A stretch of DNA of 64,000 nt, taken from IMG/VR virus record IMGVR_UViG_3300009768_000006, positions 38,552 through 102,551 of that record. One strand, 5' to 3'. Made by a program: the position numbers and the translations under genes. Of the stretch, positions 9,175-51,134 are shown in pieces (the stretch's first letter is position 1; every line of letters begins with the position of its first letter). Below the pieces are notes generated by a model, which saw nothing but the letters and a program-made list of their open reading frames with translations, was not told where the DNA came from and did no database searches. Source of the DNA: a virus. Taxonomy: Duplodnaviria > Caudoviricetes.

Positions 9175-9205
9175 AAACCTCCTGGTTGATAATCAGGAGG
9201 TTTTT
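9175..9205 (+). terminator. Intrinsic terminator
   Basis: AAACCTCCTG...CAGGAGGTTT followed by T-run. Confidence 0.85.
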
Positions 9206-9279
9206 CACATAAAAGGAGGAATTTTTAATTAATTTTCGTATTTTCATCAAAATATACGTACTGTACGTGTGATAAATAG

Positions 9280-9303
9280 GGCCAACTCTCGAGTCTCAAA
9301 CGT
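9280..9303 (+). promoter_or_regulatory. Phage promoter motif P1
   Basis: GGCCAACT-N11-AACGT. Confidence 0.6.
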
Positions 9304-9423
9304 CTCTTACGCTGAAGCGTAAGCTTCCGGAGCGTATAAGCGAAGAGTAGGCGTAGCAGCGTAGGTTAAGCGTCCGCAAAGCGGACATAAGCGCAAGCGC
9401 AAGAGACGGCCGTAGGCCGGAAG
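9301..9423. other. CG-rich multi-hairpin element (candidate origin or structured RNA)
   Basis: About 9 RGCGN repeats and five inverted-repeat pairs in 123 nt. Confidence 0.5.
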
Positions 9424-9481
9424 TATATATAAAATTATCTTATATCTATCGAGCTATATGTAGATATGAATCTAGATAATT

Positions 9482-9505
9482 TCCTAACTCTATGACATCT
9501 AACGT
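9482..9505 (+). promoter_or_regulatory. Phage promoter motif P2
   Basis: TCCTAACT-N11-AACGT upstream of HD operon. Confidence 0.7.
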
Positions 9506-9531
9506 TACTTATTACGAAGGAGAGATTTAAT

Positions 9532-10233
9532 ATGTATGAAAATCTTAGTAAGCTTTTATCCTCACCTCTTATGAATCTAGATCATGTCTATAGATATAGT
9601 GGTATTAAACAACAAGAGATGGAATCTATAGCTATCCATACTTTTGAAGTTCAAATGCTAGGTACTATGATTATAGATACTCTCCAGAATTATCATAATG
9701 AGAAAGACCTAGATATTAATAAATTTCTTAATCTAGCTTTTCATCATGATTTAGAAGAAGCTATTACAGGTGATATACCTAGACCTCTTAAGTATCATGA
9801 TAGTAATATTCATGAATCTTTAAATTCTATAGCTGAGCTAGTAGCTAAGGATCTATTCAGAAATAACTTCTTGGATTGTTCTTCTCATTATAAATCTTGG
9901 TCAGATGCTAAATCAGGTAAAGAAGGTCTTATTGTAAAATTAGCTGATACTCTTACAGTAGTATCTAAGACTATAAAAGAAATAGAGTTACTAGGTAATA
10001 AGTATTTTCTTAAAGTAGCTCTAGAAGTAAGATATTACTTAAATGAATTGGCTAAGAATATAGCTTGTACTGAATTAGACTTCAATTATCATAGCAAAAT
10101 GTATATGAATGATCTACTTTTAGAAGCTTCTAATCATCTAGGAAATATACTTTCTAAATATAGTGAGATAATTGATACGTGTATAACTATTGATAATACT
10201 ATGATAAATAATAATAAAGGAGAATGTGAATGA
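9532..10233 (+). CDS. HD-domain 5'-deoxynucleotidase (YfbR/DatZ-like)
   Basis: RYSG...ESIAIH...HHDLEEAITGDIPRPLK...KLAD. Confidence 0.85.
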   Translation: MYENLSKLLSSPLMNLDHVYRYSGIKQQEMESIAIHTFEVQMLGTMIIDTLQNYHNEKDLDINKFLNLAFHHDLEEAITGDIPRPLKYHDSNIHESLNSIAELVAKDLFRNNFLDCSSHYKSWSDAKSGKEGLIVKLADTLTVVSKTIKEIELLGNKYFLKVALEVRYYLNELAKNIACTELDFNYHSKMYMNDLLLEASNHLGNILSKYSEIIDTCITIDNTMINNNKGECE

Positions 10234-10988
10234 CCAACATAACTATCTTTGAGCCTCATGGTGATGATGCTCTTATATCTTGCTATAAATTATTAAGATC
10301 GGAGGATAATAATAAGCACATAATCACTTTCTCTGACAGATCTTCTAATAAACTAGAGGATAGACCAGAATTACCTAATGTTACTACTCAATTCCTAAAT
10401 ATCCCTGATGTACATTATGACAATCGTATCAAGTATAATACCTATGAATTGAAAAGATTGCTAAGCTCTAATGTAGACATCTACAGTTCCTATATAAATG
10501 ACTCAGATAAATTCTATAGTAAAGATATAGGAATAGACTTCGTAGATAATTATAGTAGGCATAAAGCTGCTATAATGGAGAAACTGGATAATACTGATGT
10601 AATTTTACTACCTTTCGGATTATTCCATCCTAACCATTTCATGACCAGAGATGTATTGGAAAGATTAATCTACTCTATGGATCTACAAGATAAACTTCTA
10701 TACTACATAGACAAACCTTACATAGAGAAGAAATATGTACAATACATGTTGACTTCAGCTATGAATAATATGCATTATACGTCTAATACAGTATTAGACT
10801 ATGATAAAGAAGATCCTGAAATCAAACTAGACATATTCAGAGAATGCTATCCTACTGAACAAGGATTGCTTAGATACTCTAGAAATACAGTATTGAATAG
10901 TCCTGATATGATAGTAAGCACAATCATCAACAATACTAAAGTAAGAGTATTCTTAGATACACTTATGATAGAAGGAGTAAGATTGTAA
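10230..10988 (+). CDS. PIG-L/LmbE-family N-deacetylase-like protein
   Basis: FEPHGDD (PHxDD), HPNH (HxDH-like), YYIDKPY. Confidence 0.65.
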   Translation: MTNITIFEPHGDDALISCYKLLRSEDNNKHIITFSDRSSNKLEDRPELPNVTTQFLNIPDVHYDNRIKYNTYELKRLLSSNVDIYSSYINDSDKFYSKDIGIDFVDNYSRHKAAIMEKLDNTDVILLPFGLFHPNHFMTRDVLERLIYSMDLQDKLLYYIDKPYIEKKYVQYMLTSAMNNMHYTSNTVLDYDKEDPEIKLDIFRECYPTEQGLLRYSRNTVLNSPDMIVSTIINNTKVRVFLDTLMIEGVRL

Positions 10989-10989
10989 C

Positions 10990-12132
10990 ATGAAAGTATT
11001 ATACTTTTGCTACTTGAAAAGTGATCCTAAGCTATGGCCTACTCTAGGAGATATGAGAATGGCTGTAGAAATGAGTAGAGCTCTAGGAAATAACTATGGC
11101 ATAATCCTAGCAGGAGATTTTAGATCCTTTACTGCAGATGAAGCCTATGAGTTGTGTAGTTCATACAATGCTATAGATTATCTGGACCTAGGTGAGTATT
11201 GTGACAGTGCTAGGTACATTAGTAATTCCGCTAAATCTCTCAAGAATATCATAGATAACTATGATCTTATCCATGTTCATACATCTAAGTTAGGTGTCAT
11301 GAGTACTATAAGAAGATTATATCCTAATATTCCAATGGTTGTATCTTATCATAGTCCTCCTGAGACATCAGAAGTAGGTCATTTCTATAAAGATGATCTA
11401 CTGAAATTCCTCAATCAGTCTGATTTCAGATTCGTATGTAACAGTAAGTCTCATAAACAACGTATGATAAATACTCTAAATGTACCAGTGCATACTGTAA
11501 CTAGCTTAACCTATGCCTATAATGCAATTACTGATATATATAATGTAGATAATACTACTAAAATATATAATACTGGTACTATAGGTAGAATAACCTCTGT
11601 GAAACGGATGCTTGATTTGGTGAAGTATTTTAAGTATCTGTATGAGAGGACAGGTGTGCAGTCTTATTATGTAGGAGATATAGGTCCTTATGAAAAGTCT
11701 CCTGATGCTATCAAGTACTATGAAGACTGTAAATATTATCTAGAATCTCCTGCTATAGACTGGATAAAATTTGCTACTCCTATTGAAATAGGACATATAG
11801 TGAAACAAGCTTATACATATACTACATTCAGTCAAGTAGAAACGTTTGGATTGACTCTACTAGAAGCTGGATTATCAGGTATACCTAGTGTAGTATTTGA
11901 TGTAGCAGGACACGGTGAGATTATAGATACAGGATGCAATGGGTATAAATTGAGTATCCCAGACAAGAAACGTTATAAAATATCAGATCTTCATGGAGAT
12001 TTCTATCAACTTGATACTATGGCTAGGGAACTTGATCCAGTTAAAGTAAGAGAGTATACTAAGAATAAATTCAATATGGATAAACTCTATAAAGACTTCG
12101 ATAGGATATACAAGGAGGTATTAAATGGATAA
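10990..12132 (+). CDS. GT-B glycosyltransferase (GT4-like)
   Basis: DLIHVH, GRITSVKR, ETFGLTLLEAGLSGIP, GEII..G.NG. Confidence 0.9.
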   Translation: MKVLYFCYLKSDPKLWPTLGDMRMAVEMSRALGNNYGIILAGDFRSFTADEAYELCSSYNAIDYLDLGEYCDSARYISNSAKSLKNIIDNYDLIHVHTSKLGVMSTIRRLYPNIPMVVSYHSPPETSEVGHFYKDDLLKFLNQSDFRFVCNSKSHKQRMINTLNVPVHTVTSLTYAYNAITDIYNVDNTTKIYNTGTIGRITSVKRMLDLVKYFKYLYERTGVQSYYVGDIGPYEKSPDAIKYYEDCKYYLESPAIDWIKFATPIEIGHIVKQAYTYTTFSQVETFGLTLLEAGLSGIPSVVFDVAGHGEIIDTGCNGYKLSIPDKKRYKISDLHGDFYQLDTMARELDPVKVREYTKNKFNMDKLYKDFDRIYKEVLNG

Positions 12133-12814
12133 TTTAGTGCAACGAGACTACAATGAGCATCTCAGGATTAACTCTGAGAAATCTAATGTCATGGATGATA
12201 AGTATAAACTCTCTGACGATCCGTGGGGTAATGGTGCTAGAGACTTATACACAATACCTATGAGTAGAGTGGTTAGTCTCGTGAAGAATCATATAAGCTA
12301 TCAAGATAGCAAGAATAATATCACCTGGTTAGATATAGGATGTGGTGGTGGATTTGTAGGTAGAGCTATTCGAAAGGCTCTCGTAGAAAATAATATGAAT
12401 ATCTGTATGGAAGGCTACGATATTTCTGATACAGCTATAAATAGGCTTTATGATAATCCTTCTCATAATCCCTATGATATATTATCAGTAGTTGATATGG
12501 AAGAAGTGACTGATGGTAGTTGCTATAAGCATGCGACCATAGTATCATTAGTAGAAGTGCTCTATTACTTAGGTACTAAGAGACCTTGGAAGAAGTCTGT
12601 AGATATGCTATGGGATTCATTACCTATAGGAGCTATAGTGGTAGTAGCAGATGGTCTTATCCCTTATCAATATAGAGATTATCTGAAAACTAAAGCAGAT
12701 GCTTCTCTATTACACAGCTATACAGATCCTGATACAGTAGTGAGTGAGGAAACTACATCAGCTGGTAAAAAGTGGAAACGTAATCTAAAAGTACGTATCT
12801 ATCAAAAGGGCTAA
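12125..12814 (+). CDS. Class I SAM-dependent methyltransferase
   Basis: DDPWG, WLDIGCGGG, GYDISDTAI, EVLYYL (NodS-like pattern). Confidence 0.85.
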   Translation: MDNLVQRDYNEHLRINSEKSNVMDDKYKLSDDPWGNGARDLYTIPMSRVVSLVKNHISYQDSKNNITWLDIGCGGGFVGRAIRKALVENNMNICMEGYDISDTAINRLYDNPSHNPYDILSVVDMEEVTDGSCYKHATIVSLVEVLYYLGTKRPWKKSVDMLWDSLPIGAIVVVADGLIPYQYRDYLKTKADASLLHSYTDPDTVVSEETTSAGKKWKRNLKVRIYQKG

Positions 12815-12832
12815 CTCATAGCATCTGAACGT
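12809..12832 (+). promoter_or_regulatory. Phage promoter motif P3
   Basis: GGCTAACT-N11-AACGT; its TAA is the MTase stop codon. Confidence 0.75.
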
Positions 12833-12842
12833 TTATATAGTT

Positions 12843-13018
12843 GTAAGTGGTCGCTCAAGTAAGTCAAATGATCCGATGAAAGTGGACAATCTGGACGAGT
12901 TGAGAAAGGGTGAGTTCCGATGCAGTAGGTAGTATTATAAAATGCTTTATAGATAAAATGAGGACGCTCTTTCGCCCTCAACCAATAAGCCTCCTACAAG
13001 TTAGAGGAGGCTTATTTT
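12843..13018 (+). ncRNA. Putative small structured RNA with own promoter and terminator
   Basis: No ORF; stems 12854-58/12900-04 and 12907-14/12971-78 (G-U pairs); bounded by P3 and a terminator. Confidence 0.6.
12984..13018 (+). terminator. Intrinsic terminator
   Basis: AATAAGCCTCCT...AGGAGGCTTATT followed by TT. Confidence 0.85.
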
Positions 13019-13027
13019 ATAATAATT

Positions 13028-20918: not shown

Positions 20919-21968
20919 ATGAGAGATGATTACAAGATATTAGTAGAGAGTAAACTCACTCCTGTAGGTATTAATGGTGATGATGTAATCTACAGATGTC
21001 CTGTATGTGAAGCTGTAAAAGGATCTGGTCATCTTCAGGTAAATTATAAAATAAATAAATATAATTGCTTTAAGTGTGATGTAGGAGGTTCTGATATAAA
21101 GAATCTACTGCACTTACTTAAAGTAGACGTGAGCATGGATTATGATGCTCTTTACAGTAGTTATGAGAAGAAATTAGACAATATCATATCATCTAAGTCA
21201 GCTAAGAAGCAGGTAACTACAATAAAAGATTATAGTAGAGATCTTAAGGTACTAACGTCCTATTATGATCAGCATACAAAACCATTAACTCCTGTAGCTA
21301 GGAGTTATTTAATATCTAGAGGATTAACTGATGATATAATAATGAAGCTACGAATATCTGAAGGAGTGAATAGATATAACGAGATTATTAAGATAAATAA
21401 TAAAGAATATCTAGGTAGAGATTATAGTGGTAGAGTGATGGTACCTTCTATATACGAAGATAATACTATATCATTCTTCGTAGGTAGGGATTACACAAAT
21501 ACTAAAAATAATAAGTATCTTAATCCTCCTAAGGATCTAGCATTCTCCTCTGAAGATGTATACAATTTGAACTTAGTAGAATCTAATTCAGTTATTATAT
21601 GTGAAGGTGTATTTACAGCTATAACTGTGATAGCAGGTTCAGGTAAAATAAATGCTGTAGCTACCTATGGTAAATCTATAAGCAGTAAATCTAACTCAAA
21701 TGAATCGGTAACTAGTCAAGGTGAGAAATTACTAGCTAGAAAGTTCCATACATATTATATAGCTTATGATGCAGATGCAATGAAGAATTCTATAGAGTCT
21801 GCTAAATATCTTAATGATAGAGGAGCTAATGTTAAAGTAGTACTAATTGATCCTCTAGTTTATGGAGCGAAAGCTGATATAAATGATATAGGTTATCAAG
21901 AATTCGTAAAACTTCTAAATAATTCGTTAACTTATGATAAGTACATTAGGCTAACTTTACTGAATTGA
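20919..21968 (+). CDS. DNA primase (Zn finger + TOPRIM)
   Basis: CPVC...CFKC, YLISRG, KYLNP, ICEGVF, AYDAD, DIND. Confidence 0.9.
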   Translation: MRDDYKILVESKLTPVGINGDDVIYRCPVCEAVKGSGHLQVNYKINKYNCFKCDVGGSDIKNLLHLLKVDVSMDYDALYSSYEKKLDNIISSKSAKKQVTTIKDYSRDLKVLTSYYDQHTKPLTPVARSYLISRGLTDDIIMKLRISEGVNRYNEIIKINNKEYLGRDYSGRVMVPSIYEDNTISFFVGRDYTNTKNNKYLNPPKDLAFSSEDVYNLNLVESNSVIICEGVFTAITVIAGSGKINAVATYGKSISSKSNSNESVTSQGEKLLARKFHTYYIAYDADAMKNSIESAKYLNDRGANVKVVLIDPLVYGAKADINDIGYQEFVKLLNNSLTYDKYIRLTLLN

Positions 21969-21972
21969 ACGT
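21949..21972 (+). promoter_or_regulatory. Phage promoter motif P7
   Basis: GGCTAACT-N11-AACGT upstream of luxS. Confidence 0.8.
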
Positions 21973-22009
21973 TTCTATATACGTAAGAATTGTAATGGAG
22001 GTATTACTA

Positions 22010-22495
22010 ATGATAATGAGTTTCTCGGTGGACCATACAAAATTAGTACCAGGACTCTATCTTTCAGAGAAGATAGGTAACATCTCTATCTGGGATATCA
22101 GGATGGTGGCTCCTTCATCTAAGAAGAAGCTCACAGGTCCTGTAGTTCACACTTTGGAGCACCTCCTAGCATTCTATATTAGATTGCATTTAGGAGAGAA
22201 GAAAGTCATAGGGTTGTATCCTATGGGATGCAAAACAGGATTCTATCTGGTTACTAAAAGAGCTAGTAAACATCAAGTATTGGAAGCGATGAAAGATGTC
22301 TTCCATATATTCTATACGAATGCTCAAGGGAGTTGGGAGGATAGAAATATTATAGCTATCCCTGGAGCTACAGAGAAAAGTTGTGGGAATCCTAACTACC
22401 ACAATCTTCCTGAAGCTCTGAAAGAAGCAGCTAAGTACTATGATAAGCTGTATATGCTGTACACTGTAGATATGGACTATGATAACTTAGTATAA
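22010..22495 (+). CDS. luxS: S-ribosylhomocysteine lyase LuxS
   Basis: SFSVDHTKL, DIR, HTLEH, PMGCKTGFY, IPGA...CGN..YH. Start reassigned to ATG 22010 (GGAGG RBS). Confidence 0.92.
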   Translation: MIMSFSVDHTKLVPGLYLSEKIGNISIWDIRMVAPSSKKKLTGPVVHTLEHLLAFYIRLHLGEKKVIGLYPMGCKTGFYLVTKRASKHQVLEAMKDVFHIFYTNAQGSWEDRNIIAIPGATEKSCGNPNYHNLPEALKEAAKYYDKLYMLYTVDMDYDNLV

Positions 22496-22510: not shown

Positions 22511-23560
22511 ATGAAGAGTGATAGGTTGGTACAAGGTAATTTTACAGGTCCTATAAGACCTACAGCTAAAATCATAAGTCATACTAGTTATCCTATCGGT
22601 ACTTTGTATACTGTATGGACAGGTACTAGATATGGTAGATGTCTGGATCCTAAGGTAGTTCAGGAGATTTATGATGGTAATTGGACAGAGGATCGCAGGG
22701 ACGAAGTTGAATTCATCTGTAAATGCTATCCTGAGTATACTGGTAGTTGGACTAGTAGGAAGACGCAGGCTTCCTCTGTGATTCTAGCGATTGCTCAGAA
22801 AGTCATAGAGTCAAATGTTCCTGCAGGAGAAGCGGTTCATCTTAATATCCAGATAGACAATGCTAGTGTTGCATGGCGTGAGCAGCTAGTCAGAGGTAGG
22901 ATATCTCAACAATTCTGGACTATGTCTACTAGGATCATGGACATGACGTCTATGGATGTGAACATGAATGATAGCATAAATCTTATCGGTGGTGAAGAAG
23001 CTGTAAAAATTTATGAGGATACTGTTCAGACTATCAGAGATGCTTATACTAAACTGATTGACCTAGGTATCCCTGTAGAGGATATCAGACTGCAACCTCA
23101 GAATCATGTTCATAGAGTGTACTGGATGGTTCCTCTACGTACGTTGGTAACTATTCTGAATAAACGTAGTGACTGGATCGCACAAGGATCTCTTTGGACT
23201 CCTATTGTATCCAGTATCATCTTAGCTCTAAGACAGATAGGGCTTTACAATGTTATAGCTCCGTTCATAGGGAAGCCTATGGTTGAGTTCTCAAAGGATC
23301 CTGAAGGGAACTATTTTGTTTCTAAATATATAATGGAAGCAGATAATGAAGATAGGTATAGTGGGAGAGATAAACTTCCATGTGATCCTCTATGGCTAGC
23401 ATACAGACATAAAACGATGCCAGCTCATACTAACATAGAGCATTATGATTATCTGAAGTCTGTCTACATGAATATTTGGTCTGATGAATATTTGGAAATA
23501 CTAGGATGGGATAGGGAGAATCCTGAGCAGTTAGGTTACTACGATAGACCTCAGGCATAA
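22511..23560 (+). CDS. Divergent ThyX-like (FAD-dependent thymidylate synthase family) protein
   Basis: REQLVRGR-X8-STR versus canonical RHR-X7-SxR; LGIPVEDIR resembles GxxxEDAR. Confidence 0.6.
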   Translation: MKSDRLVQGNFTGPIRPTAKIISHTSYPIGTLYTVWTGTRYGRCLDPKVVQEIYDGNWTEDRRDEVEFICKCYPEYTGSWTSRKTQASSVILAIAQKVIESNVPAGEAVHLNIQIDNASVAWREQLVRGRISQQFWTMSTRIMDMTSMDVNMNDSINLIGGEEAVKIYEDTVQTIRDAYTKLIDLGIPVEDIRLQPQNHVHRVYWMVPLRTLVTILNKRSDWIAQGSLWTPIVSSIILALRQIGLYNVIAPFIGKPMVEFSKDPEGNYFVSKYIMEADNEDRYSGRDKLPCDPLWLAYRHKTMPAHTNIEHYDYLKSVYMNIWSDEYLEILGWDRENPEQLGYYDRPQA

Positions 23561-23572
23561 CAAAAGATAGGA

Positions 23573-24196
23573 GTGTTCTTACAAATGAGCAAGTTTATAG
23601 GGATATCAGGTCCTACATGTACTTACAAAAGTACTATACATGCCTTATTGAAGAAAGTACTGCCTACGGATCCTAAAATAGTATACCTGGATGATATCCA
23701 TGATACTGTATGGAATAACTTGGTAAAGAGTGGTGTATTCTTTAACTATCAAGAACTGACTAGCGATAGAGATTACTTACTCATGTACATATCCAAGCTG
23801 ATAGATTACTATGCTAGTCAGATAGAGAAATACAAATACACTGATAACATTGTAATCATGGATGGGTGTATCGTAGACATATTAGTCTACAGTATGTTGA
23901 ATACCTGGTATCATTATCCAGTGAAAGAGTATACAGAGAAACTGATGGAAAAACTACTGAAGTATATGGATTACATAGACAATGTATTCATCACTATTCC
24001 TGATAAGAATAACGAAGAGAAACTTCAGTACAGCAGAAGAGCTCAACAAACTGCATTTAAGAAGAACAGGCCTCTAGAATGTTCATACTACAACATAGCT
24101 GGAGGTTTGCGTATATGTACGAAGCTTACATCAGACATAGTAAGTAATGCTAATATTATAAAAGAAAAAGTGCTAGAGTATGTAGCCTTACTGTGA
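23573..24196 (+). CDS. P-loop nucleoside/nucleotide kinase-like protein
   Basis: GISGPTCTYKST, IMDGCIVD. Confidence 0.55.
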   Translation: MFLQMSKFIGISGPTCTYKSTIHALLKKVLPTDPKIVYLDDIHDTVWNNLVKSGVFFNYQELTSDRDYLLMYISKLIDYYASQIEKYKYTDNIVIMDGCIVDILVYSMLNTWYHYPVKEYTEKLMEKLLKYMDYIDNVFITIPDKNNEEKLQYSRRAQQTAFKKNRPLECSYYNIAGGLRICTKLTSDIVSNANIIKEKVLEYVALL

Positions 24197-24208
24197 GCAT
24201 CATAACGT
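24185..24208 (+). promoter_or_regulatory. Phage promoter motif P8
   Basis: GCCTTACT-N11-AACGT. Confidence 0.7.
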
Positions 24209-24232
24209 TCTATATAATGGAGGTGATTACAC

Positions 24233-24958
24233 ATGCTCATAATAGATTCCATGGATAAACTACTAAACCACATAATAACAAATTGTTTTGAATATGACGG
24301 AATAGTAGTAGAAGGCTATGATTGTGTAGGTAAAGGTAGAGTACTAACTGATATAGCCTATGGATTAAATACTACTGTATATAGACCTGATTATACTGTA
24401 TGGACTCCTGAATTCTTAGGGAAAGAGGAAAGATGGAAGCTATCAGCTTACTATTTGGATATATGTTCTAAGCTTCATATTCCTAGAAAATCATTGAATA
24501 TCCAGGAATTCAGGAATAATCCTATAGACATATTTGATAGAGGAGTATTGTCAGGATATGTTTATAACCATGTAGATATAAGAAAATTCTACAAGGAGAT
24601 ATTAAGAGACTACAGACTACTTCATGTGATAGTGACCTGTGATGAATATAGTTTCTTCAAATACTTAGAATCTAGAAATAATAATATCACTGAGCAGCAG
24701 AAGCATGAGGAATTATTTAAATTAGCAGTTTACACTGAGTCATATGTTAATATTGCGAAGGAATTAGACCTATTAGCTTGTGTCTATATTAACAGTTATG
24801 ATCAATGCAAAGATAATTCTAATACTTGTGAAGGCTGTGGGCATTATAGCTATGGTGTATGTAAGAATCCTAGAAGTGATTATTATAACAATACAGTTAA
24901 TGATAATTTGAGCAGATGTAAAGTATCTAATGACGAGGAGATACAAGATGTACAATAA
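24233..24958 (+). CDS. dNMP kinase-like protein with C-terminal Cys cluster
   Basis: VVEGYDCVGK, IFDRG..SGYVY; CEGC...C...C tail. Confidence 0.6.
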   Translation: MLIIDSMDKLLNHIITNCFEYDGIVVEGYDCVGKGRVLTDIAYGLNTTVYRPDYTVWTPEFLGKEERWKLSAYYLDICSKLHIPRKSLNIQEFRNNPIDIFDRGVLSGYVYNHVDIRKFYKEILRDYRLLHVIVTCDEYSFFKYLESRNNNITEQQKHEELFKLAVYTESYVNIAKELDLLACVYINSYDQCKDNSNTCEGCGHYSYGVCKNPRSDYYNNTVNDNLSRCKVSNDEEIQDVQ

Positions 24959-41340: not shown

Positions 41341-41760
41341 ATGGTAAAATTTAGTAAGCTGGATCCAAATGCTGTAATTCCTGTCAGAAAGACTTTATTA
41401 GCTGCAGGATATGACATGAGTGCTAATGAGTGCTACATTATCCTTCCTCATGCTATAGCTTTAGTAGGAACAGGGATAACCGCTACACTAGAAGATGATC
41501 AGTGGATAGATCTTCGAATCAGGAGTAGTCTAGCATTATCAGGGTTAATGCTCATGAATGGAGCAGGCGTTGTAGATGCTGATTATGCAGGTAATGAGAT
41601 AAAATTTATGCTATATAACGCTTCAGATAAGCCAGTTGCTATAGAAGCATATCAAAGGATAGGACAAGCTATCATCAGCACTTATCATAAAGTAGATGAT
41701 GATCATCTATATCAAGCAGATGTTCGCATTAGTGGATTTGGGAGCACAGGAGATAAATAA
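41341..41760 (+). CDS. dut: dUTPase (trimeric)
   Basis: AAGYD, RSSLA, GVVDADY, RIGQ, R.SGFGSTG. Confidence 0.95.
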   Translation: MVKFSKLDPNAVIPVRKTLLAAGYDMSANECYIILPHAIALVGTGITATLEDDQWIDLRIRSSLALSGLMLMNGAGVVDADYAGNEIKFMLYNASDKPVAIEAYQRIGQAIISTYHKVDDDHLYQADVRISGFGSTGDK

Positions 41761-41761
41761 T

Positions 41762-42100
41762 ATGAAGAAACAAGATGCATTCATGAAGAAATTGTGTAAC
41801 GTAGGGCAAGCTGTTGAAGTAGCTAAAGCAGCAGCTGCTGATGCTGTTGAAGATTATCATAAGCAGAACTTTGGATTGTTAGCTAGCATCTCAGTTAATA
41901 TAGAACTTCTAAAATCTATATTATTTGCTAATAATCTGATCACTGAAGAGCAATACTCTGAAAAATTCGAAGAAAGTATGGGAGCTTATATAGAGAACAT
42001 AAATAAAGTAGTTAAGGAATATACTGATAATCTGAAAGTTAAGTTAGCAGCTACTGAGGATCCTAAGGTAAACATCAAGACAGAAAGTAGAGGGAATTAA
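41762..42100 (+). CDS. Hypothetical protein
   Basis: ORF; start after GGAG RBS. Confidence 0.65.
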   Translation: MKKQDAFMKKLCNVGQAVEVAKAAAADAVEDYHKQNFGLLASISVNIELLKSILFANNLITEEQYSEKFEESMGAYIENINKVVKEYTDNLKVKLAATEDPKVNIKTESRGN

Positions 42101-42101
42101 T

Positions 42102-43115
42102 ATGAGTAAAGTTTACAATAAATGTAAACTAAGCGATGTACTTTACAATGATGATCTTAGTATAGACAATAAGGTCGTATCTACTTTGCTCAGAAAATAC
42201 TCTGGTATGAGATTCTCCACTATAGATGATATCCTGGCCAAGACGAATAGAGAGTTCATTATAAATCTAGCCAATGTGCTCGTTCCAGGTGAGTTAACTT
42301 TCCTAGTCAGTGACAAGAATGTGTTAGGGATTACAGAAGGTGATAGGGATCCAGTGTTAAATACTGTATTTGTATCTACAGTGAAGACTCATATCGTGAA
42401 TACTAATCTGGAGATCTCTGAGATATATAGTAAATCAGATACTAGTAGCTCTATATTGTTGAAAAGGACTACTCCTATAACTGTAGAATTGGACAATAAG
42501 TCTTATGATTACACTGTAGGAGTATTATTAGAGAATGATGAGCTATCTAATGCTCATGCTCGGTTAGTAATGTATATGGATGATATTCCTGTATATTTAC
42601 CTTTAAGCAATTATAGCCTGACTAATGCTAGATATCGCAAAACCACGGGTAGTGATATAGAAGCATTAGAAGTCTTGATGCTTAGAGTAGTAGACGACTT
42701 CAGGGAAGATATGCTTGTAGACAGAGTCCTAGGTTTCCACAAGAAGTTATCTAAGCTGACTAGTATAACTGCTACATATGAAGAGTATAAATCTTTACTA
42801 GACAGTATCAATAAGGCTATTATATCTATGGAAGGATATAGCGAAGATGTCACTATAGATGATAATATGTTAGATTACTTCACTGCTAATTATGGTGATG
42901 TTGATATACATAGTAAGTCATTCTTGTGGAGATGTACAGCTATAGCTCCTAATAGTGTAATGGCTATAATCACAGAAGCATTGAATATCCTCAATCAACA
43001 TAAAGATTTAGTAGGAGATTATGCATCTGGTGTAAGAGAGCTATTAGGTGAGTATATATCTACAAGACGTATATCACAGGAAATAGCTAAGAAGACTGTC
43101 TATAATGTTACCTGA
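42102..43115 (+). CDS. Hypothetical protein
   Basis: Long ORF in operon. Confidence 0.7.
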   Translation: MSKVYNKCKLSDVLYNDDLSIDNKVVSTLLRKYSGMRFSTIDDILAKTNREFIINLANVLVPGELTFLVSDKNVLGITEGDRDPVLNTVFVSTVKTHIVNTNLEISEIYSKSDTSSSILLKRTTPITVELDNKSYDYTVGVLLENDELSNAHARLVMYMDDIPVYLPLSNYSLTNARYRKTTGSDIEALEVLMLRVVDDFREDMLVDRVLGFHKKLSKLTSITATYEEYKSLLDSINKAIISMEGYSEDVTIDDNMLDYFTANYGDVDIHSKSFLWRCTAIAPNSVMAIITEALNILNQHKDLVGDYASGVRELLGEYISTRRISQEIAKKTVYNVT

Positions 43116-44124
43116 GATAGAAATAGCACTACAAGCTTCTCCAGATTATGATAAGATAAACAGTATCGGTGATGAAATATTCAAGTTAGGTAAGTTCGAG
43201 CTACTAGATGAGTACATGCTACTAGTAGCTCCTTTAATTAATAAATCTTATTATAAGTATATATCTACATATGATGATAGATATTATGCTAGAGAAGATC
43301 TTGTTCAAGATGTTTATACTATCCTATATAGAGACATGAAGCTAAGGTGGGATAAGTATATAAGAGTGGAAGATTATTATAAATATATAAGTGTATTAGC
43401 TACTAATATAATGATGAATCTAGTACATAATTATCATAGCTATTACAAGAATGATGAATATGATCCAGAATTCAGTAAAGATATAATGAAAGAAAGAGTT
43501 ATTACAGATAAGATAGAATATAGAATAATGATGGATAGTGTGAAAACTTCTATAGTAGATAAATCAATGGAATTAGCTAATAATAGAGGTAGGTTGTCGT
43601 CTATAATATTACGTATAATAGATTGTAAGTATGGTAAAAATTCTAATACTACTAATATAGATAAATTAAAGTATAAATTTAGAGTAGTAATGATAAGTAA
43701 TAATGAATTTAAGCATTGTTGTTATTTAGCAGATTATTACTATAAGTTAGCTTATAATTATCAGAAATCATCTTTAAGAGAGGATGGTAGTATGCTGCAG
43801 ATATTAGAGAATATATTTAGTAGATTTGGATCACTAACCTACAAGATACTAGTTGATAAATATGCTGATAGTATAATACCTGAAATATTTGCAGAGTTCG
43901 GTAGCGAGATAGCTAGAAAATTCGTCAAATCGTTCAGTGGTAGAACTATTACTGTACCTAATTATGATAGCTTCAAGGATGACTTATTAGCAGGAATGAT
44001 CCTTACATTATCTAAATGTGATAAAAACCGTCTTTATGATATAGCAGTAGAGTATGACCTTCCGTATAAAATGGTTAAAAGGATATATGATAATTCTATA
44101 CATTATATGAAGGATGGTGAATAG
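43105..44124 (+). CDS. Putative transcription factor (sigma region-2-like N-terminus, Mor-like C-terminus)
   Basis: REDLVQDVY; FG...A.KFVKSFSGRTITVP...DIAVEYDL....VKRI. Confidence 0.5.
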   Translation: MLPEIEIALQASPDYDKINSIGDEIFKLGKFELLDEYMLLVAPLINKSYYKYISTYDDRYYAREDLVQDVYTILYRDMKLRWDKYIRVEDYYKYISVLATNIMMNLVHNYHSYYKNDEYDPEFSKDIMKERVITDKIEYRIMMDSVKTSIVDKSMELANNRGRLSSIILRIIDCKYGKNSNTTNIDKLKYKFRVVMISNNEFKHCCYLADYYYKLAYNYQKSSLREDGSMLQILENIFSRFGSLTYKILVDKYADSIIPEIFAEFGSEIARKFVKSFSGRTITVPNYDSFKDDLLAGMILTLSKCDKNRLYDIAVEYDLPYKMVKRIYDNSIHYMKDGE

Positions 44125-44126
44125 GT

Positions 44127-44801
44127 ATGAAAACTCCTATTATACCTAGTCAATGTAAATTATGCAGTAACTTCAATGCAGATACGATGATGTGTAATGT
44201 TCATGAACAGTTGCCTGGTGAGTATTCCAGAGAAAATGTATCTGATTGTCCTGAATTTACTGAAACTAATAACATGGATAAAGATATCATACTTAGAGAT
44301 TATCTAGATGATGATGAAGGTATAGCAAATACTGTAAAGTTAATTGTAGATAAAATATTAGTAGGATATGAAGAAAAATTTAAAGTAATGTTAATAGGTA
44401 TAGCAAGGAAGAAAATCAAGTCTATATTAACTATGACAGATATGATAGACAATATATTAGATAGATTGAATGCTAGAGTAGAGGATATGAACACTACGCA
44501 ATATATAAGATTACTATCAGAGTTGAATATTTCTGTGAATAATGATATATCTTATATAATGAAATTAGTAAGTACTGCTAATAATCCTAAAGATATAACT
44601 GCGTTATTTATGAGTAATAACAATGTAATTAATCTAAATTCAGGATCATCTCCGACTACAGATATAAAAGCATCAGATATGCTAAGTATATCCAGTGCCT
44701 CTAGAGATAAGATTAGAGATGCTTTTGATGCTATACTGAATAATGTTAATGAAATAGTTAATCCTGTAGAGATAGTTGAGGATGATAAAGATGAGTATTA
44801 A
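44127..44801 (+). CDS. Hypothetical protein (N-terminal Cys/His cluster)
   Basis: ORF in operon. Confidence 0.65.
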   Translation: MKTPIIPSQCKLCSNFNADTMMCNVHEQLPGEYSRENVSDCPEFTETNNMDKDIILRDYLDDDEGIANTVKLIVDKILVGYEEKFKVMLIGIARKKIKSILTMTDMIDNILDRLNARVEDMNTTQYIRLLSELNISVNNDISYIMKLVSTANNPKDITALFMSNNNVINLNSGSSPTTDIKASDMLSISSASRDKIRDAFDAILNNVNEIVNPVEIVEDDKDEY

Positions 44802-45099
44802 TGATTCTATTATAGAAAGGATGATGAATGATAAGAATGTAAAAAGATTAGGATTAACTGAATTTAGCGCGAAAGGTATAGTAGAAGCCTTTTTCACATC
44901 TATGATGGATGTATTGATAGATAAAGGTAATGTAGAAATATCAGAAGATATAAGATTTGAGATAATACCTACGAAAGGTAGAGTGCATAAACTACGAGGT
45001 GTAGTTTATAATTCAACAAGAAGCTACAAGATTAAAACATCTATATCAAATAGTCTATACGAAAGGATTAAGGAAGAATATGATGAATACAGAGTATAA
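44791..45099 (+). CDS. HU/IHF-like DNA-binding protein
   Basis: AKGIVEAFF..MMDVL..KGNVEI...RFEI...KGR...YKIK...S.SL. Confidence 0.6.
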   Translation: MSINDSIIERMMNDKNVKRLGLTEFSAKGIVEAFFTSMMDVLIDKGNVEISEDIRFEIIPTKGRVHKLRGVVYNSTRSYKIKTSISNSLYERIKEEYDEYRV

Positions 45100-46573: not shown

Positions 46574-46650
46574 GGATCGTTAGTTCAGTTGGTTAGAGCA
46601 TCTGTCTCATAAACAGAGTGTCACTGGTTCAAGTCCAGTACGATCCACCA
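46574..46650 (+). tRNA. tRNA-CAT (Ile2 or elongator Met)
   Basis: Cloverleaf GGATCGT/ACGATCC, anticodon arm TCTGT-CTCATAA-ACAGA, encoded CCA. Confidence 0.9.
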
Positions 46651-47235
46651 GGCCGCAATCGGCCATAAGTTAAGCTGGCGAGTGCTAGTAGGATTCCTTC
46701 TGGTGAAATCCCAGATATGCTTCGAAGGATGCCTCATGGAATAGCCACTTGCTTTTAGAGGACATTGAAGACTCTCACAAGTAATGCGAGACTGTTGGAG
46801 AAATCTTCTTAATGATGGACTTAGTAGCGAGTGAGTTCCTTCTAAGTGAACTGCGTTACGCAGATTATTTAAGGATGAGCGTTGGTAGGAAACGATACTT
46901 ACCGAGGGGTAGCGCAACTACTGGTAACAGGATGTTGAGGTTGGTTCAGCTATCAGCCAAGGATGGGACTTGGCAAAAGTCCTGTTCATCCATTAAAAAT
47001 CTTTCGAAGGTTGCTTCCTAATCTTTGTCTAAAGGAGGGTGAACGGCAAGGAACCAGGGTTCGAACCTTAGGTTGAGGTTTATGTTCGTGGAGCTAGGAT
47101 GCAAGCTAATAAGGGTGATCAAATAGGTCATCAAACTTAGCCTATACGGAGCGTAGAAGCGGGGAAAATAGACCTAAGAGTGGCGAGGTAGGATTACTCG
47201 GTATGGGACAACGCCTGTCTCATAAAATCCGTTTC
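46651..47235 (+). ncRNA. Large structured ncRNA candidate (about 580 nt)
   Basis: ORF-poor, GC-elevated, more than 10 hairpins with G-U pairs, abuts the tRNA CCA end. Confidence 0.65.
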
Positions 47236-47270
47236 TTTAAAGTACTAATTAGTGAAAGGATGATTTACTA

Positions 47271-47570
47271 ATGAAGAAACTATATAATGTGGCTTTGATA
47301 AAGAAGGTAACTCCTGATGAATTAGCAGAACAGGAAGTTCATGAAACGTGAGCTTCTGTAATAAATGGTGCAGAACTTTACGCAACTAAAGCTCCTAATG
47401 GTAAAGATGTTGAAATTTTGTTCTGGAGGAGCATGAAGCTGAAAAGTTTAGTAAGTCTGATATTCACTAGGGATTTCGCTAAGGAGCACTTCAAAGTCAC
47501 TGGTAACGCTTCAGATTGGATGGGGCAAGAAATCAGTAAGCAGATAAACAAAGAGGAAGATTACAACTAA
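47271..47570 (+). pseudogene. 99-codon ORF with in-frame TGA at codon 27
   Basis: MKKLYNVAL...EVHET*ASVING...; GAAAGGA RBS; TGA at 47349. Confidence 0.55.
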
Positions 47571-47581
47571 GTATAAAGTTT

Positions 47582-47972
47582 GTGGTAGGATATCTGGATG
47601 ACATTCCACGATTAGCTAGCGTCGTGTTCCTACCATGATAAAAGAAATCCAGCGTTGAAGGGATACGTTACGCCTTCCGGGGTCGCAGATTGTGGGACTT
47701 GGTAACAAGACTTATAAGGGGAAGGGTCTGCGTGTGTGGGATTCGGTGTGTGGCAAATCTCACAAAGTAAAAGAAGCAAGGGTTAGATAGGGTTAGGGGT
47801 TTAGCAGGTTTATGGGCTGTGGCCGATGGCCATTTCTTCTTACTGCTAGACAAAGGCAACCATCATGAATGAAGGTTGGTGTAGCTTCTTTTAAGGGTTA
47901 ATGTGCTCTTATCGTTTATGAAGGTAAGACAAATCCAAAGGGTTTAAGTAGGGTTCGAGTCCCATTTAAAAG
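47582..47972 (+). ncRNA. Structured ncRNA candidate (about 390 nt) with pseudoknot, G-tracts and T-loop
   Basis: Multiple nested stems; GGGTTCGAGTCCC at 47951; ends just before tRNA-Asn. Confidence 0.6.
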
Positions 47973-47979
47973 CATAGTT

Positions 47980-48054
47980 GGTGAGTTAGCTCAACGGTAG
48001 AGCTTTCGGCTGTTAACCGAACGGTTGTGAGTTCGAATCTCACACTCACCTCCA
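47980..48054 (+). tRNA. tRNA-Asn(GTT)
   Basis: GGTGAGT/ACTCACC, TTCGG-CTGTTAA-CCGAA, CCA. Confidence 0.92.
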
Positions 48055-48104
48055 GAATCTTATAACCTGTAGCTATATGATGAATAAGTAAGGAGTTTCT
48101 AAAG

Positions 48105-48416
48105 ATGTTCAAAACAGGTATTATCAGAAGAATTGATGATCTTGGAAGAATCGTAATCCCTAGGGATGTTAGACGTAGATTAGGACTTATCGAAGGTGCT
48201 GCACTAGAAATCTGCATCGATCAAGGTAAAGTATTTCTTCAGAAATATGATCCTACAGAGGATGTTAATGGTCATATAAGCTCACTCAAGGACGTACTTA
48301 ATGATGCTAAGGGTTATACGTTACCTAATGATTGTGTAGAAAGCTTGCTCACTATGTTGCAAGACTTCGAGCAAACTTTACAAGAAGGGATTCAGAAACA
48401 GAGAAAACTTGTGTAA
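48105..48416 (+). CDS. AbrB/SpoVT-family transcription regulator
   Basis: TGIIRRIDDLGRIVIP..VRR.L.L.EG..LEI. Confidence 0.9.
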   Translation: MFKTGIIRRIDDLGRIVIPRDVRRRLGLIEGAALEICIDQGKVFLQKYDPTEDVNGHISSLKDVLNDAKGYTLPNDCVESLLTMLQDFEQTLQEGIQKQRKLV

Positions 48417-48438
48417 TGAAAGTGAGGTTTAAATATGT

Positions 48439-48585
48439 ATGAATGAGCCTATTATTGAGATGAATCAAGAGTGGGAAAGTCTGGATGTTGATGATTTGAT
48501 GGACTTAGATCTATTGGATTTAGATGATCCTGATATTACTGAGTATGATGGTTGCGATTTTGGAGACATAGATTACTATGAATAA
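48439..48585 (+). CDS. 48-aa hyper-acidic protein
   Basis: Hand translation; 19 D/E, no K/R. Confidence 0.45.
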   Translation: MNEPIIEMNQEWESLDVDDLMDLDLLDLDDPDITEYDGCDFGDIDYYE

Positions 48586-48609
48586 CCTATTATATATTAG
48601 GAGTTTACT

Positions 48610-48936
48610 ATGAAGAAGGCAATGCTATCTCAGCCTATGGCTGGCAAGACGGAAGAGGAGATCATTTCAACGAGAGAAAAAGCTATCAAGCTTCTGGAAT
48701 CTCTAGGATATGAAGTAGTCAATACTCTATTCACAGATGAGTGGTACAGTAAAGAGAAAATGGTCGAAAGAGGCGTAGTCCAGATTCCACTTTGTTTCCT
48801 TGCTAAAAGCCTAGAGAATATGTCACTATGTCATGCAGCTTATTTCTGTGATGGTTGGGAGAAAGCTAGAGGCTGCAGAATTGAGCATGATGCAGCTGAA
48901 GCTTATGGACTCGAAATCCTATATGAGAGGACATAG
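48610..48936 (+). CDS. DUF4406-like (NDT-fold) protein
   Basis: MLSQPMAG...YFCDGWEKARGCRIEH..A..YG. Confidence 0.7.
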   Translation: MKKAMLSQPMAGKTEEEIISTREKAIKLLESLGYEVVNTLFTDEWYSKEKMVERGVVQIPLCFLAKSLENMSLCHAAYFCDGWEKARGCRIEHDAAEAYGLEILYERT

Positions 48937-48947
48937 ATAAGACACTA

Positions 48948-48974
48948 GCTATCATGACGGAATCGGCAGACGTA
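48948..48974 (+). pseudogene. 5' fragment of a tRNA-Leu
   Basis: GCTATCATGACGGAATCGGCAGACG parallels the 5' end of tRNA-Leu(TAG) at 53203. Confidence 0.6.
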
Positions 48975-48977
48975 TAA

Positions 48978-49064
48978 GGCGGTATGGTGGAATTTGGCAT
49001 ACACACTGAACTTAAAATTCAGCAAGAGAAATCTTTGCGAGTTCGAATCTCGCTACCGCTACCA
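48978..49064 (+). tRNA. tRNA-Leu(TAA)
   Basis: CTGAA-CTTAAAA-TTCAG, long variable arm, CCA. Confidence 0.9.
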
Positions 49065-49165
49065 GATTGAATAAGAAAACAATAGCCTGATCATCTATTG
49101 AGATAATGATGCTCCTACATCAAGCTTATTCAATTAATTTAATAATTATTAGGAGGTAATTAACC

Positions 49166-49387
49166 ATCTATAAATGCATATGCAGTAAAGAATTTGAGAA
49201 GAGTCAATCTTATGTTGCTCATTGTAGTCATTGCAAAGTTCATTTAGGTTATAGTCCTATTGATAGATTTGGAGAATCTAGAGCATGGAATAAAGGTAGG
49301 ACTGTAGAAGATCCTGTATATGGAGATTCTATTAAGAAGATGAATATACAGACCCCTATTTATGACCTAACTTATACTATCTCGTAG
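49166..49387 (+). pseudogene. Degenerate homing-endonuclease-like N-terminus
   Basis: AGGAGG RBS then ATC in place of ATG; YKCICSKEF...AHCSHC, AWNKG (NUMOD3-like). Confidence 0.5.
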
Positions 49388-49448
49388 ACTTAGCAGAAAT
49401 TCCTATGAATAAGACAACAATTCATCTAATAGAAGCTGAATAAATTTA

Positions 49449-49472
49449 GCCTAACTTAAGACTAATGAACGT
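49449..49472 (+). promoter_or_regulatory. Phage promoter motif P17
   Basis: GCCTAACT-N11-AACGT. Confidence 0.8.
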
Positions 49473-49527
49473 CTATTAGGTTGAAAGAGGAATTAACTCT
49501 TAATTAACTTGAGGAGGATTTAAGAAA

Positions 49528-50436
49528 ATGGAAAGAATGACTGAAAGAGTCCCTATGTGGGAGAGGATTGGCACTTCTTCTGAGGATCACAGCTTTGATG
49601 CTCTGTTCAACAAAGCAGGTCTCAACTACAAGGTTGAGGTGAGAGATCTTCTCACAAGCAATGGCGTAGAGGTCAGGAAGGTCCCTGATAGGTTCGCTAC
49701 TGTCAGATCCGATACGGGCGATGTGCTCGGTATCGTAAGTGATCGGTACAAGGTTTGCCAGAATGAAGATGCTCTGGATTTCGTCAAGTTCATCGATGGA
49801 GTGGATCTCATCAGAGCAGGTATCTACAATGGAGGTTCCGGCTGCTACATGATCGGTAAGCTCCCTGAAGTCACTGTCCTCGGAGATAAAATCAGGCCTA
49901 ACATCATCTGGCAGAACACTCATGATGGATCTGGGAGCATCAGAAGTACTGTCTGCATGCTGCGTCTCGTTTGCCAGAATCAGTTCGTGCAAAGCTTCAA
50001 GAATTCGCCTGTGACTATCAAGTTCTCTCACATGGGCGACTTGAATGAAAAACTTCTCGCTGCTAAGCAGCAACTCGTCAGTGTCTATGACTACATCAGC
50101 GTGTATGAGGAAGAAGCTACTAAGTATGCTAGGAGCAAGATCACTCCTGAGAAATTCAACAAGATTCTCCAGTCCATGTTCAATATCAAAGAAGATAACT
50201 CGCCCAGGCTGAACCAGAGGCTCGAAACTGAGAAATCCATGTTTATCACAGCCTATGAACAAGAGGATAACCAGAACTTCAAAGGTACAAAGTGGGGAGT
50301 CATCAACGCTTTCAGTGACTTCATTACTCACGGAGCTCCTTCCCGTAAGTCTGAGAACTGGGATGAGAACAGATTCCTCTGGAGTCTGAATCCTAGCATC
50401 ATGGACAACTTCGTAGAGCTTATCGAAGCTGCTTAA
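49528..50436 (+). CDS. DUF932/DUF945-family protein
   Basis: AGLNYKV, ATVRSDTG.VLGIVSDRYKVCQN, NTHDGSG, RLVCQN, GTKWGVINA. Confidence 0.85.
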   Translation: MERMTERVPMWERIGTSSEDHSFDALFNKAGLNYKVEVRDLLTSNGVEVRKVPDRFATVRSDTGDVLGIVSDRYKVCQNEDALDFVKFIDGVDLIRAGIYNGGSGCYMIGKLPEVTVLGDKIRPNIIWQNTHDGSGSIRSTVCMLRLVCQNQFVQSFKNSPVTIKFSHMGDLNEKLLAAKQQLVSVYDYISVYEEEATKYARSKITPEKFNKILQSMFNIKEDNSPRLNQRLETEKSMFITAYEQEDNQNFKGTKWGVINAFSDFITHGAPSRKSENWDENRFLWSLNPSIMDNFVELIEAA

Positions 50437-50443
50437 AATCAGC

Positions 50444-50476
50444 AGGAGGCTGAGATAACCTCTTAGCCTCCTTATT
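50444..50476 (+). terminator. Hairpin/terminator before tRNA-Val
   Basis: AGGAGGCTGAGA...TCTTAGCCTCCT. Confidence 0.65.
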
Positions 50477-50478
50477 CT

Positions 50479-51123: not shown

Positions 51124-51134
51124 GGAGAATCATC

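Follow-up and report, generated by a model that had tools for sequence, protein, structure and literature searches.

A phage operon encoding a candidate sugar arm of a DNA hypermodification pathway

Analysis of a 64,000-nucleotide stretch of a tailed phage genome (Duplodnaviria; Caudoviricetes), comprising bases 38552–102551 of the 102,551-bp IMG/VR virus record IMGVR_UViG_3300009768_000006, a record with direct terminal repeats, revealed an operon of four genes. The whole stretch is called the window below, and positions are given in its own numbering. The genes encode, in this order, an HD-type deoxynucleotidase, a predicted de-N-acetylase, a glycosyltransferase (GT) and a methyltransferase (MTase). 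We propose that the operon acts on DNA, as a candidate sugar arm of a phage DNA hypermodification pathway, and assign this reading a probability of roughly 0.55. That the full chemistry runs from N-acetylglucosamine (GlcNAc) through glucosamine (GlcN) to an N-methylated sugar on a DNA pyrimidine is a tentative extension of it. A DNA target is suggested by the regulon that the operon shares with replication genes, the motif of which is absent from the first 48 kb of the genome, and by the position of the same genes ahead of topoisomerase II genes in two distant phages (L004 and L005). It is further argued for by members of the deacetylase clade that adjoin PolA or a set of thymidylate synthase, deoxynucleoside monophosphate (dNMP) kinase and nucleoside triphosphate (NTP) pyrophosphatase genes in unrelated phages, and by the HD relatives found in the hypermodified-thymidine phages SP-15, YerA41 and Carin-5. 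A phage-encoded S-adenosylmethionine (SAM) cycle (MetK, Pfs and LuxS) also points to DNA, as do ThyX-like, dTMP-kinase-like and other downstream genes that fit a supply arm for a modified nucleotide.

The four genes form a single transcription unit, which its promoter motif places with genes of replication and nucleotide metabolism. Neighbouring genes overlapped by 4 nt at the first junction and by 8 nt at the third, with a gap of 1 nt at the second, and a GGAG-type ribosome-binding site was present 6–10 nt upstream of the ATG in all four genes. The promoter-like motif CTAACT-N11-AACGT occurred 17 times in the window, always on the + strand (0.03 copies expected by chance). Across the whole 102.5-kb genome, 17 of 17 copies lay from the operon onward and none in the first 48 kb, which were assumed to hold the structural genes. 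No copy fell inside the operon, and the one at 9484 was followed by the next at 12811. The regulon defined by this motif consists of replication, nucleotide-metabolism and tRNA genes. Because of the junctions, the flanking terminators and the distribution of the motif, the four genes are regarded as one unit and the first of that regulon. A preliminary description of this DNA, made from the sequence alone, had noted tight coupling of the four genes, a single promoter and a place at the head of the replication module. All three points held: the open reading frames (ORFs) at 9532–12814 overlap or abut on the + strand, each with its ribosome-binding site; one promoter-like copy precedes them at 9484; and the operon opens the regulon.

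The product of gene 1 was assigned to the YfbR-like HD 5'-deoxynucleotidases on the basis of PF12917 (E 1e-24; 87.7 bits against a cut-off of 25.9), phrog_7076 (1e-34) and its top PDB match, YfbR 2paq (5e-10). In the comparison with 2paq, H36, the HHD at positions 70–72 and the TGDIPRP segment (the HD...TGDxPxP block) were aligned. The score was below the NCBIfam equivalog level (58 vs. 122 bits). The nearest relatives in GenBank phages were those of LIS04 (SP-15-like; 44% identity), SP-15 (38.5%), HSE3 and GXN1, with more distant ones in YerA41 and Carin-5. DNA of SP-15, YerA41 and Carin-5 contains glycosylated hypermodified thymidine (PMC5977210, PMC12686479). In SP-15, LIS04 and HSE3 the HD gene is located between helicase and primase genes, apart from sugar genes. 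A Z-genome reading, combining DatZ with PurZ, was considered and set aside, as no PurZ-like or adenylosuccinate-synthetase-like ORF was present among the scanned ORFs of the window, which covers the genome from base 38552 onward.

Gene 2 had no match in Pfam, PHROG or NCBIfam. For PF02585, the gene 2 protein itself (P0001) gave no match, a homolog (G002) scored 12.3 bits against a cut-off of 28.2, and remote members of the family reached E-values of 0.0016–0.008, likewise below the cut-off. A profile of six sequences retrieved nothing meaningful from the PDB, and Foldseek with the gene 2 model gave weak, mixed matches only. The assignment was therefore based on a profile of 83 sequences and on a wide structural search with VIA-align. 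The 83-sequence profile matched the pseudoaglycone deacetylase Dbv21 (1.2e-10), teicoplanin Orf2* (8e-9), a diacetylchitobiose deacetylase (1e-4) and, weakly, MshB. For the AlphaFold2 (AF2) model (mean predicted local distance difference test, pLDDT, of 72), LmbE-family structures made up six of the seven best VIA-align matches, with Z-scores of 9.7–7.6 over 164–180 residues (Dbv21 9.7, 3we7 8.9, BC1534 8.8, MshB 7.8).

Two motifs, EPHGDD and HPNH, were invariant among five homologs of gene 2. The former (residues 8–13) aligned with PHLDDA of Dbv21 and Orf2* and corresponds to the (A/P)HxDD motif, which holds the zinc-binding His/Asp and the catalytic Asp; D12 and D13 were invariant and H10 was kept in at least 90% of the 83 sequences. 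The latter (residues 133–136) aligned with HPDH of Dbv21 and corresponds to the HxxH motif with the third zinc ligand; H136 was invariant and H133 was kept in at least 90%. An exhaustive profile search gave 311 representatives at the 50% identity level (E ≤ 1e-3), and the two Atlas clusters nearest to gene 2 were 93% and 71% viral. Gene 2 is thus predicted to encode a distant enzyme of the LmbE/PIG-L superfamily, overlooked by the Pfam model and belonging to a mostly viral clade, with de-N-acetylase activity as its probable function.

The gene 3 product contained both PF13439 (Glyco_transf_4; 40.2 bits, cut-off 28.5) and PF00534 (Glycos_transf_1; 38.1 bits, cut-off 26.4), and its EX7E pair (E284/E292) was invariant across six homologs, down to 19% identity. 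When the family profile was compared with the PDB, BshA structures were retrieved with the lowest E-values (2jjm 6e-21, 3mbo 7e-21, 5d00 2e-19), the next match being at 2e-14. Two of them, 3mbo and 5d00, were also the top Foldseek matches of the AF2 model (pLDDT 87.5). The BshA equivalog was the best NCBIfam match but was not reached (41 bits vs. a cut-off of 273.7). The protein is a retaining GT4 enzyme whose nearest solved relatives are BshA proteins, but it falls outside the BshA equivalog.

Gene 4 matched Pfam families of class I MTases only (Methyltransf_23, Methyltransf_12 and Methyltransf_31), all below cut-off, and its product begins with a conserved, family-specific DPWGN segment. The PDB profile matches were mixed: 9sls, a type-12 MTase (3e-7), the plantazolicin N-methyltransferases BpumL and BamL (8e-7) and NodS (3e-4), the last with the longest N-terminal coverage. 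The Atlas NodS cluster was the best full-length structural lead (TM-score 0.74). Pfam NodS (PF05401) had no match in this genome, and a homolog of the protein (G001) scored 10.6 bits against a cut-off of 24. The nearest PHROG label was 'tRNA methyltransferase', a weak match at 5e-5. A second class I methyltransferase is encoded at 50575–51123 of the window.

The operon encodes four soluble enzymes with intact catalytic motifs; no membrane-spanning segment was found in any of the four proteins, a point of little weight in favour of a DNA target. The enzyme families named in the preliminary description (HD, LmbE/PIG-L, GT4 and class I MTase) stood, whereas its DNA target was supported by context only. 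Its GT4-like call agreed with two Pfam domains above cut-off and the EX7E pair, and its PIG-L-like call was borne out by profile, fold and motifs in spite of missing Pfam support. Two finer labels did not carry over. The HD protein is YfbR-like in family and nearest structure, but a DatZ-like specificity was indicated by the phrog_7076 label alone, no DatZ chain being present among the PDB matches at E ≤ 0.01. The MTase is of class I, but its membership in NodS was not supported by PF05401, its likeness to NodS being one of fold and PDB profile. Since the enzyme assignments hold, the analogy drawn there with BshA/BshB, a GT4 and PIG-L pair, is apt: BshA proteins are the nearest solved relatives of the GT, and gene 2 is of LmbE type.

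The same four genes recur in other phages. In two distant IMG/VR genomes, L004 and L005, the order HD, deacetylase, GT4 and MTase was kept, with identities to the proteins described here of 22–41% (in L004 41, 30, 22 and 41%, respectively; L005 was similar). In both, an additional ORF of approximately 380 amino acids (aa) is located between the MTase and topoisomerase II genes (3450–4586 in L004 and 9072–10220 in L005). The two additional proteins were 28% identical to each other, matched neither Pfam nor PHROG and had no counterpart in this genome; they may be further tailoring enzymes. GenBank phages gave no match in a DNA-level search with the operon. With tblastn, the deacetylase matched QdP_Psa3 only, the GT gave one marginal match and the MTase none.

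Natural fusions were found in which the deacetylase is joined to this same MTase family (P0039; hhalign probability 100%, E 8e-51), to another MTase (P0133) or to GT-B glycosyltransferases (P0074, P0142 and P0147). These fusions support a module of GT, then deacetylase, then MTase, and the deacetylase–MTase fusion would fit methylation of the freed amine. For the closest homologs of the deacetylase, GT and MTase, on Logan contigs, co-location was deduced only from contigs of the same size (4453, 5475, 16269 and 36694 bp).

Members of the deacetylase clade were also found beside genes of DNA metabolism in independent phage lineages. In the Pseudomonas phage QdP_Psa3, the end of PolA overlaps with a gene of the clade, after which come a GT4, a nucleotide-sugar epimerase and another GT; the genome also encodes a ThyA homolog. 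In an unrelated metagenomic contig (L009, 9986–14102), a divergent homolog of thymidylate synthase lies at a distance of approximately 1 kb from a short LmbE-like gene, and genes for a dNMP kinase and a MazG-like NTP pyrophosphatase come after the synthase homolog. Synthase homolog, kinase and pyrophosphatase form a classical base-replacement cassette, and this contig is a candidate for a second type of amino-sugar DNA modification cluster. In L006, the clade member has a PolB-type exonuclease on one side and a GT4 on the other, with a fusion of GT2 and sulfotransferase as a further neighbour.

Genes that could supply a modified nucleotide and methyl groups are encoded further along the window (Table 1). 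The ThyX-like protein had no PHROG match; its sole full-length match in GenBank phages was in the SP-15-like Listeria phage LIS04, and it was present in both L004 and L005. A similarly orphan Thy1-domain protein of SP-15 was proposed by its authors to be the modifying synthase (PMC5977210). The ThyX-like and dTMP-kinase-like genes (interval 22511–24958) are followed by a 241-aa ORF without family match and then by a 980-aa PolA with an N-terminal domain resembling uracil-DNA glycosylase (UDG); a dUTPase is also encoded in the window. The polymerase was nearest to SPO1/SP-10-type polymerases rather than to those of SP-15 or YerA41 in particular, and the UDG-PolA architecture that it shares with the latter is not taken as a sign of close kinship. 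Hypermodification clusters have been delimited by a GT gene that is located, among replication genes, no more than approximately 10 kb from a gene of thymidylate-synthase type or for a dioxygenase (5mYOX) (bioRxiv 10.1101/2023.12.21.572611). Because approximately 10.4 kb separate the stop codon of the GT gene (12132) from the start of the ThyX-like gene (22511), within one motif-defined regulon, their linkage lies at the edge of this 10-kb limit. The gene for a protein of nucleoside 2-deoxyribosyltransferase fold is located in the same region of the replication module as the ThyX-like gene, and adjacent to it in LIS04; its product may act as a nucleotide N-glycosidase in the removal or salvage of a base. 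LuxS, MetK and Pfs are predicted to make up most of an activated methyl cycle, which fits a stoichiometric demand for methyl groups.

Table 1. Features of the operon, its flanks and the associated nucleotide-supply and SAM genes (window coordinates).
Feature	Position	Strand	Basis or remark
Terminator-like hairpin with T-run ending the preceding gene	~9176–9206		sequence
Promoter-like motif copy CTAACT-N11-AACGT	9484–9505	+	27 nt upstream of the HD ATG
Gene 1, YfbR-like HD 5'-deoxynucleotidase, 233 aa	9532–10233	+	PF12917, phrog_7076, PDB match YfbR
Gene 2, predicted distant LmbE/PIG-L-superfamily zinc de-N-acetylase, 252 aa	10230–10988	+	83-sequence profile, fold search, motifs
Gene 3, predicted retaining GT4 (GT-B fold) glycosyltransferase, BshA-like, 380 aa	10990–12132	+	Pfam, EX7E, BshA profile and Foldseek matches
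Gene 4, class I SAM-dependent methyltransferase with DPWGN N-terminal segment, 229 aa	12125–12814	+	sub-cut-off Pfam, PDB profile matches
Likely terminator for operon read-through, strong hairpin followed by T-run	12985–13019	+	12-bp stem in minimum-free-energy and centroid folds
Nucleoside 2-deoxyribosyltransferase-fold protein, 290 aa	17092–17964		kept in L004, L005 and LIS04
LuxS	21965–22495		
ThyX-like protein, 349 aa	22511–23560		atypical, RGR in place of the RHR signature
dTMP-kinase-like P-loop protein	23573–24196		adjoins the ThyX-like gene
SAM synthetase (MetK)	54614–55741		
Pfs-like methylthioadenosine/S-adenosylhomocysteine nucleosidase	57083–57688		

The flanks of the operon contained two further elements. 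Downstream of an imperfect motif copy (9282; one mismatch), a GC-rich hairpin cluster of 126 nt (window 9282–9430) stands out in a CpG-poor genome; both lie after the upstream terminator and before the motif copy of the operon itself. The cluster had an RNA fold z-score of −3.2, none of 200 shuffled sequences folding as well, and could be a small RNA, a leader or an origin-like element. At the other end, the motif copy at 12811 and the MTase stop codon overlap; approximately 190 gene-free bases then extend up to the strong terminator hairpin, in the position taken by the additional ORF in L004 and L005. This stretch (12811–13022) folded slightly better than chance (z −1.56) and may give rise to a short transcript. 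Elsewhere in the window, nine tRNA genes (Met, Asn, two Leu, Val, Ser, Arg, Gly and Thr; 46574–53288) are interspersed with motif copies, and five consecutive ORFs after the dUTPase gene (134, 337, 339, 224 and 107 aa; 41696–45099) matched neither Pfam nor PHROG.

The phage itself is a distant relative of the SPO1/SP-10 group myophages; its DUF4815 baseplate protein (1158 aa) was 33–34% identical to the counterparts in that group. It encodes an anaerobic ribonucleotide reductase together with its activase, which suggests an anaerobic host. Strong palindrome avoidance was not found in the genome, an observation of little weight in favour of a DNA target.

If the operon acts on DNA, its enzymes could be ordered as follows. 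The HD enzyme would hydrolyse a canonical deoxynucleotide, most likely a thymidine nucleotide, which would be replaced by a modified, hydroxyl-bearing dUMP derivative made by the ThyX-like protein and phosphorylated by the dTMP-kinase-like protein. After replication, the BshA-like GT4 would transfer an N-acetylhexosamine (HexNAc), probably GlcNAc from the UDP-GlcNAc of the host, onto the hydroxyl of the base in DNA. The LmbE-like enzyme would then take off the acetyl group, and the MTase would methylate the product, most plausibly on the freed amine. The outcome would be a bulky, positively charged adduct in the major groove, with MetK, Pfs and LuxS sustaining the SAM turnover that methylation of every such base would need. 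The expected gain would be resistance to restriction enzymes and to other DNA-targeting defences. In its complete form, that is, phage DNA with a cationic N-methyl-glucosaminyl pyrimidine produced by a BshA-like GT4, an enzyme of the LmbE clade and their partner MTase on a ThyX-derived thymidine analogue, this scheme is possible but doubtful.

Several observations weigh against a DNA target. The phage is known from metagenome only. Small molecules or glycopeptides are the substrates of the nearest solved relatives, both for the GT and for the deacetylase superfamily (BshA, MshB and Dbv21). In textbook accounts, synthesis of low-molecular-weight thiols begins with a GT4 and LmbE pair. The operon comes immediately after the DUF4815 baseplate gene, a position compatible with glycosylation of virion proteins or of the cell envelope. 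SP-15, YerA41 and Carin-5, the DNA of which is known to be modified, are without this deacetylase, GT and MTase. The ThyX-like protein could simply be a divergent thymidylate synthase of the ordinary kind, and the role of MetK, Pfs and LuxS could lie in signalling or in support of other methyltransferases.

The place after the baseplate gene would suit an unlikely alternative in which the GT, deacetylase and MTase glycosylate a polymer of the envelope (wall or lipoteichoic acid, or capsule) or a virion protein. Such a product would alter receptor availability, leading to superinfection exclusion, or the virion surface, and the HD enzyme would be a merely co-transcribed gene of the nucleotide pool. 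The separation of the HD gene from sugar genes in SP-15, LIS04 and HSE3 is in line with this, as is the presence, among weaker matches of the GT, of TarM, SdgA/B and GtfA, GT4 enzymes that transfer GlcNAc to teichoic acid or proteins. BshA, however, led the next solved relative by approximately six orders of magnitude, with TarM and GtfA lower still, and the HD gene was co-transcribed with the sugar genes in all three syntenic phages. The promoter motif, moreover, places the operon with replication genes, and the deacetylase clade adjoins PolA or the base-replacement cassette in unrelated phages.

The likeness of the GT to BshA, its nearest solved relative and best NCBIfam match, and the membership of the deacetylase in the superfamily of BshB, MshB and Dbv21 could also indicate a soluble small molecule that helps the infected cell or harms competitors. 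This product would be a GlcN conjugate of bacillithiol or mycothiol type, possibly N-methylated, or an aminoglycoside-like metabolite. N-methyl-bacillithiol is known in some bacteria. We regard this as improbable, since the BshA score (41 bits) fell well short of the NCBIfam cut-off, the deacetylase clade is mostly viral and occurs in neighbourhoods of DNA metabolism, and Pfam and NCBIfam named no BshC- or MshC-type cysteine ligase among the scanned ORFs of the window, no targeted search having been made. Proven DNA glycosyltransferases also have BshA as top structural match, so that this likeness does not discriminate between the readings (PMC13326640). Modification of RNA, e.g., by a glycosylated and methylated base in the phage's own tRNAs, would agree with the nine tRNA genes under the same promoter motif and with the PHROG label of the MTase. 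It is very improbable, as no genes for queuosine or another tRNA-base pathway turned up among the scanned ORFs, the HD deoxynucleotidase and the ThyX-like and dTMP-kinase-like proteins point to deoxynucleotides, and the neighbours in other phages are DNA polymerase and thymidylate-synthase homologs.

Few shields against restriction enzymes and CRISPR nucleases serve phages as well as glycosylated bases, which also complicate sequencing and phage engineering. To our knowledge, the examples described so far involve neutral or acidic sugars; if the proposed pathway is real, a positively charged glycan would join the known DNA chemistries. It would provide the first enzymatic de-N-acetylation and N-methylation of a DNA-linked glycan and, with the LmbE-type deacetylase and its partner methyltransferase, two new types of enzyme acting on DNA-linked sugars. 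The viral deacetylase clade, with approximately 300 representatives, would then be the signature of a widespread kind of amino-sugar DNA modification that has so far escaped recognition. Because its 311 representatives frequently lie beside, or are fused to, GT and MTase genes, the clade would serve as a searchable marker for such phages in metagenomes. The ThyX-like orphans of SP-15-type phages and the phage MetK/Pfs/LuxS cycle would be tied to a concrete demand.

Parts of the proposed pathway have precedents on DNA. In T4 (alpha- and beta-GT), RB69 and DLP3 (arabinosyl-5-hydroxycytosine, 5hoC) and GT clusters linked to TET or ThyS, GT-B enzymes glycosylate a pyrimidine hydroxyl in DNA after replication, and the genes are linked to thymidylate-synthase homologs, dNMP kinases and pool-clearing hydrolases; the TET/ThyS-linked clusters place hexose (Hex), HexNAc, heptose (Hep) or 3-deoxy-D-manno-octulosonic acid (Kdo) on 5-hydroxymethylcytosine (5hmC). 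Their GTs have no detectable sequence similarity to the GT described here, and the precursor enzyme here is ThyX-like rather than ThyA-like or TET-like. For gp76 and gp77 of DLP3, which together add arabinose to a DNA-linked sugar in vitro, the top Foldseek match was BaBshA (PMC13326640). Phage gene clusters also install HexNAc on 5hmC in DNA, with GT-B enzymes that resemble BshA and MshA (bioRxiv 10.1101/2023.12.21.572611). Both BshA-like DNA glycosyltransferases and the presence of HexNAc on 5hmC have thus been published before, and the new part would be the tailoring of the DNA-linked sugar: in the phage DNA-glycosylation literature searched, neither an LmbE-type deacetylase nor a sugar methyltransferase was described. 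SP-15 (Thornevirus), YerA41 and Carin-5 contain some of the nearest HD relatives and have the long PolA with a UDG-like N-terminal domain in common with this phage (PMC12686479). In Carin-5, a deacetylase and several GTs beside the polymerase gene were proposed to build the DNA glycan; that deacetylase is annotated as a polysaccharide deacetylase, a family different from that of gene 2.

The closest biochemical parallels to the chemistry lie outside DNA. BshA/BshB and MshA/MshB likewise combine a retaining GT4 with an EX7E motif and a second enzyme of LmbE fold with His/Asp/His metal motifs, and they add an N-acetyl sugar before unmasking its amine. Unlike them, the phage pair scores far below the family cut-offs (GT against BshA) or has no match (gene 2 against PF02585), is accompanied by an HD deoxynucleotidase and an MTase inside a replication regulon, and probably uses neither malate nor inositol phosphate as GT acceptor. 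Dbv21 and Orf2*, the GlcNAc deacetylases of the A40926 and teicoplanin pseudoaglycones, were the best profile and fold matches of gene 2, at approximately 15% identity. They deacetylate a GlcNAc previously put on a large acceptor by a GT-B enzyme, ahead of further N-tailoring; their acceptor, however, is a glycopeptide, and their next step is N-acylation, not methylation. NodC, NodB and NodS differ in their enzyme families (a GT2 glycosyltransferase and a CE4 deacetylase) and in their acceptor, a chitin oligomer, but follow the same order of chemistry as that proposed here, with a GT, a de-N-acetylase and an N-methyltransferase acting in turn.

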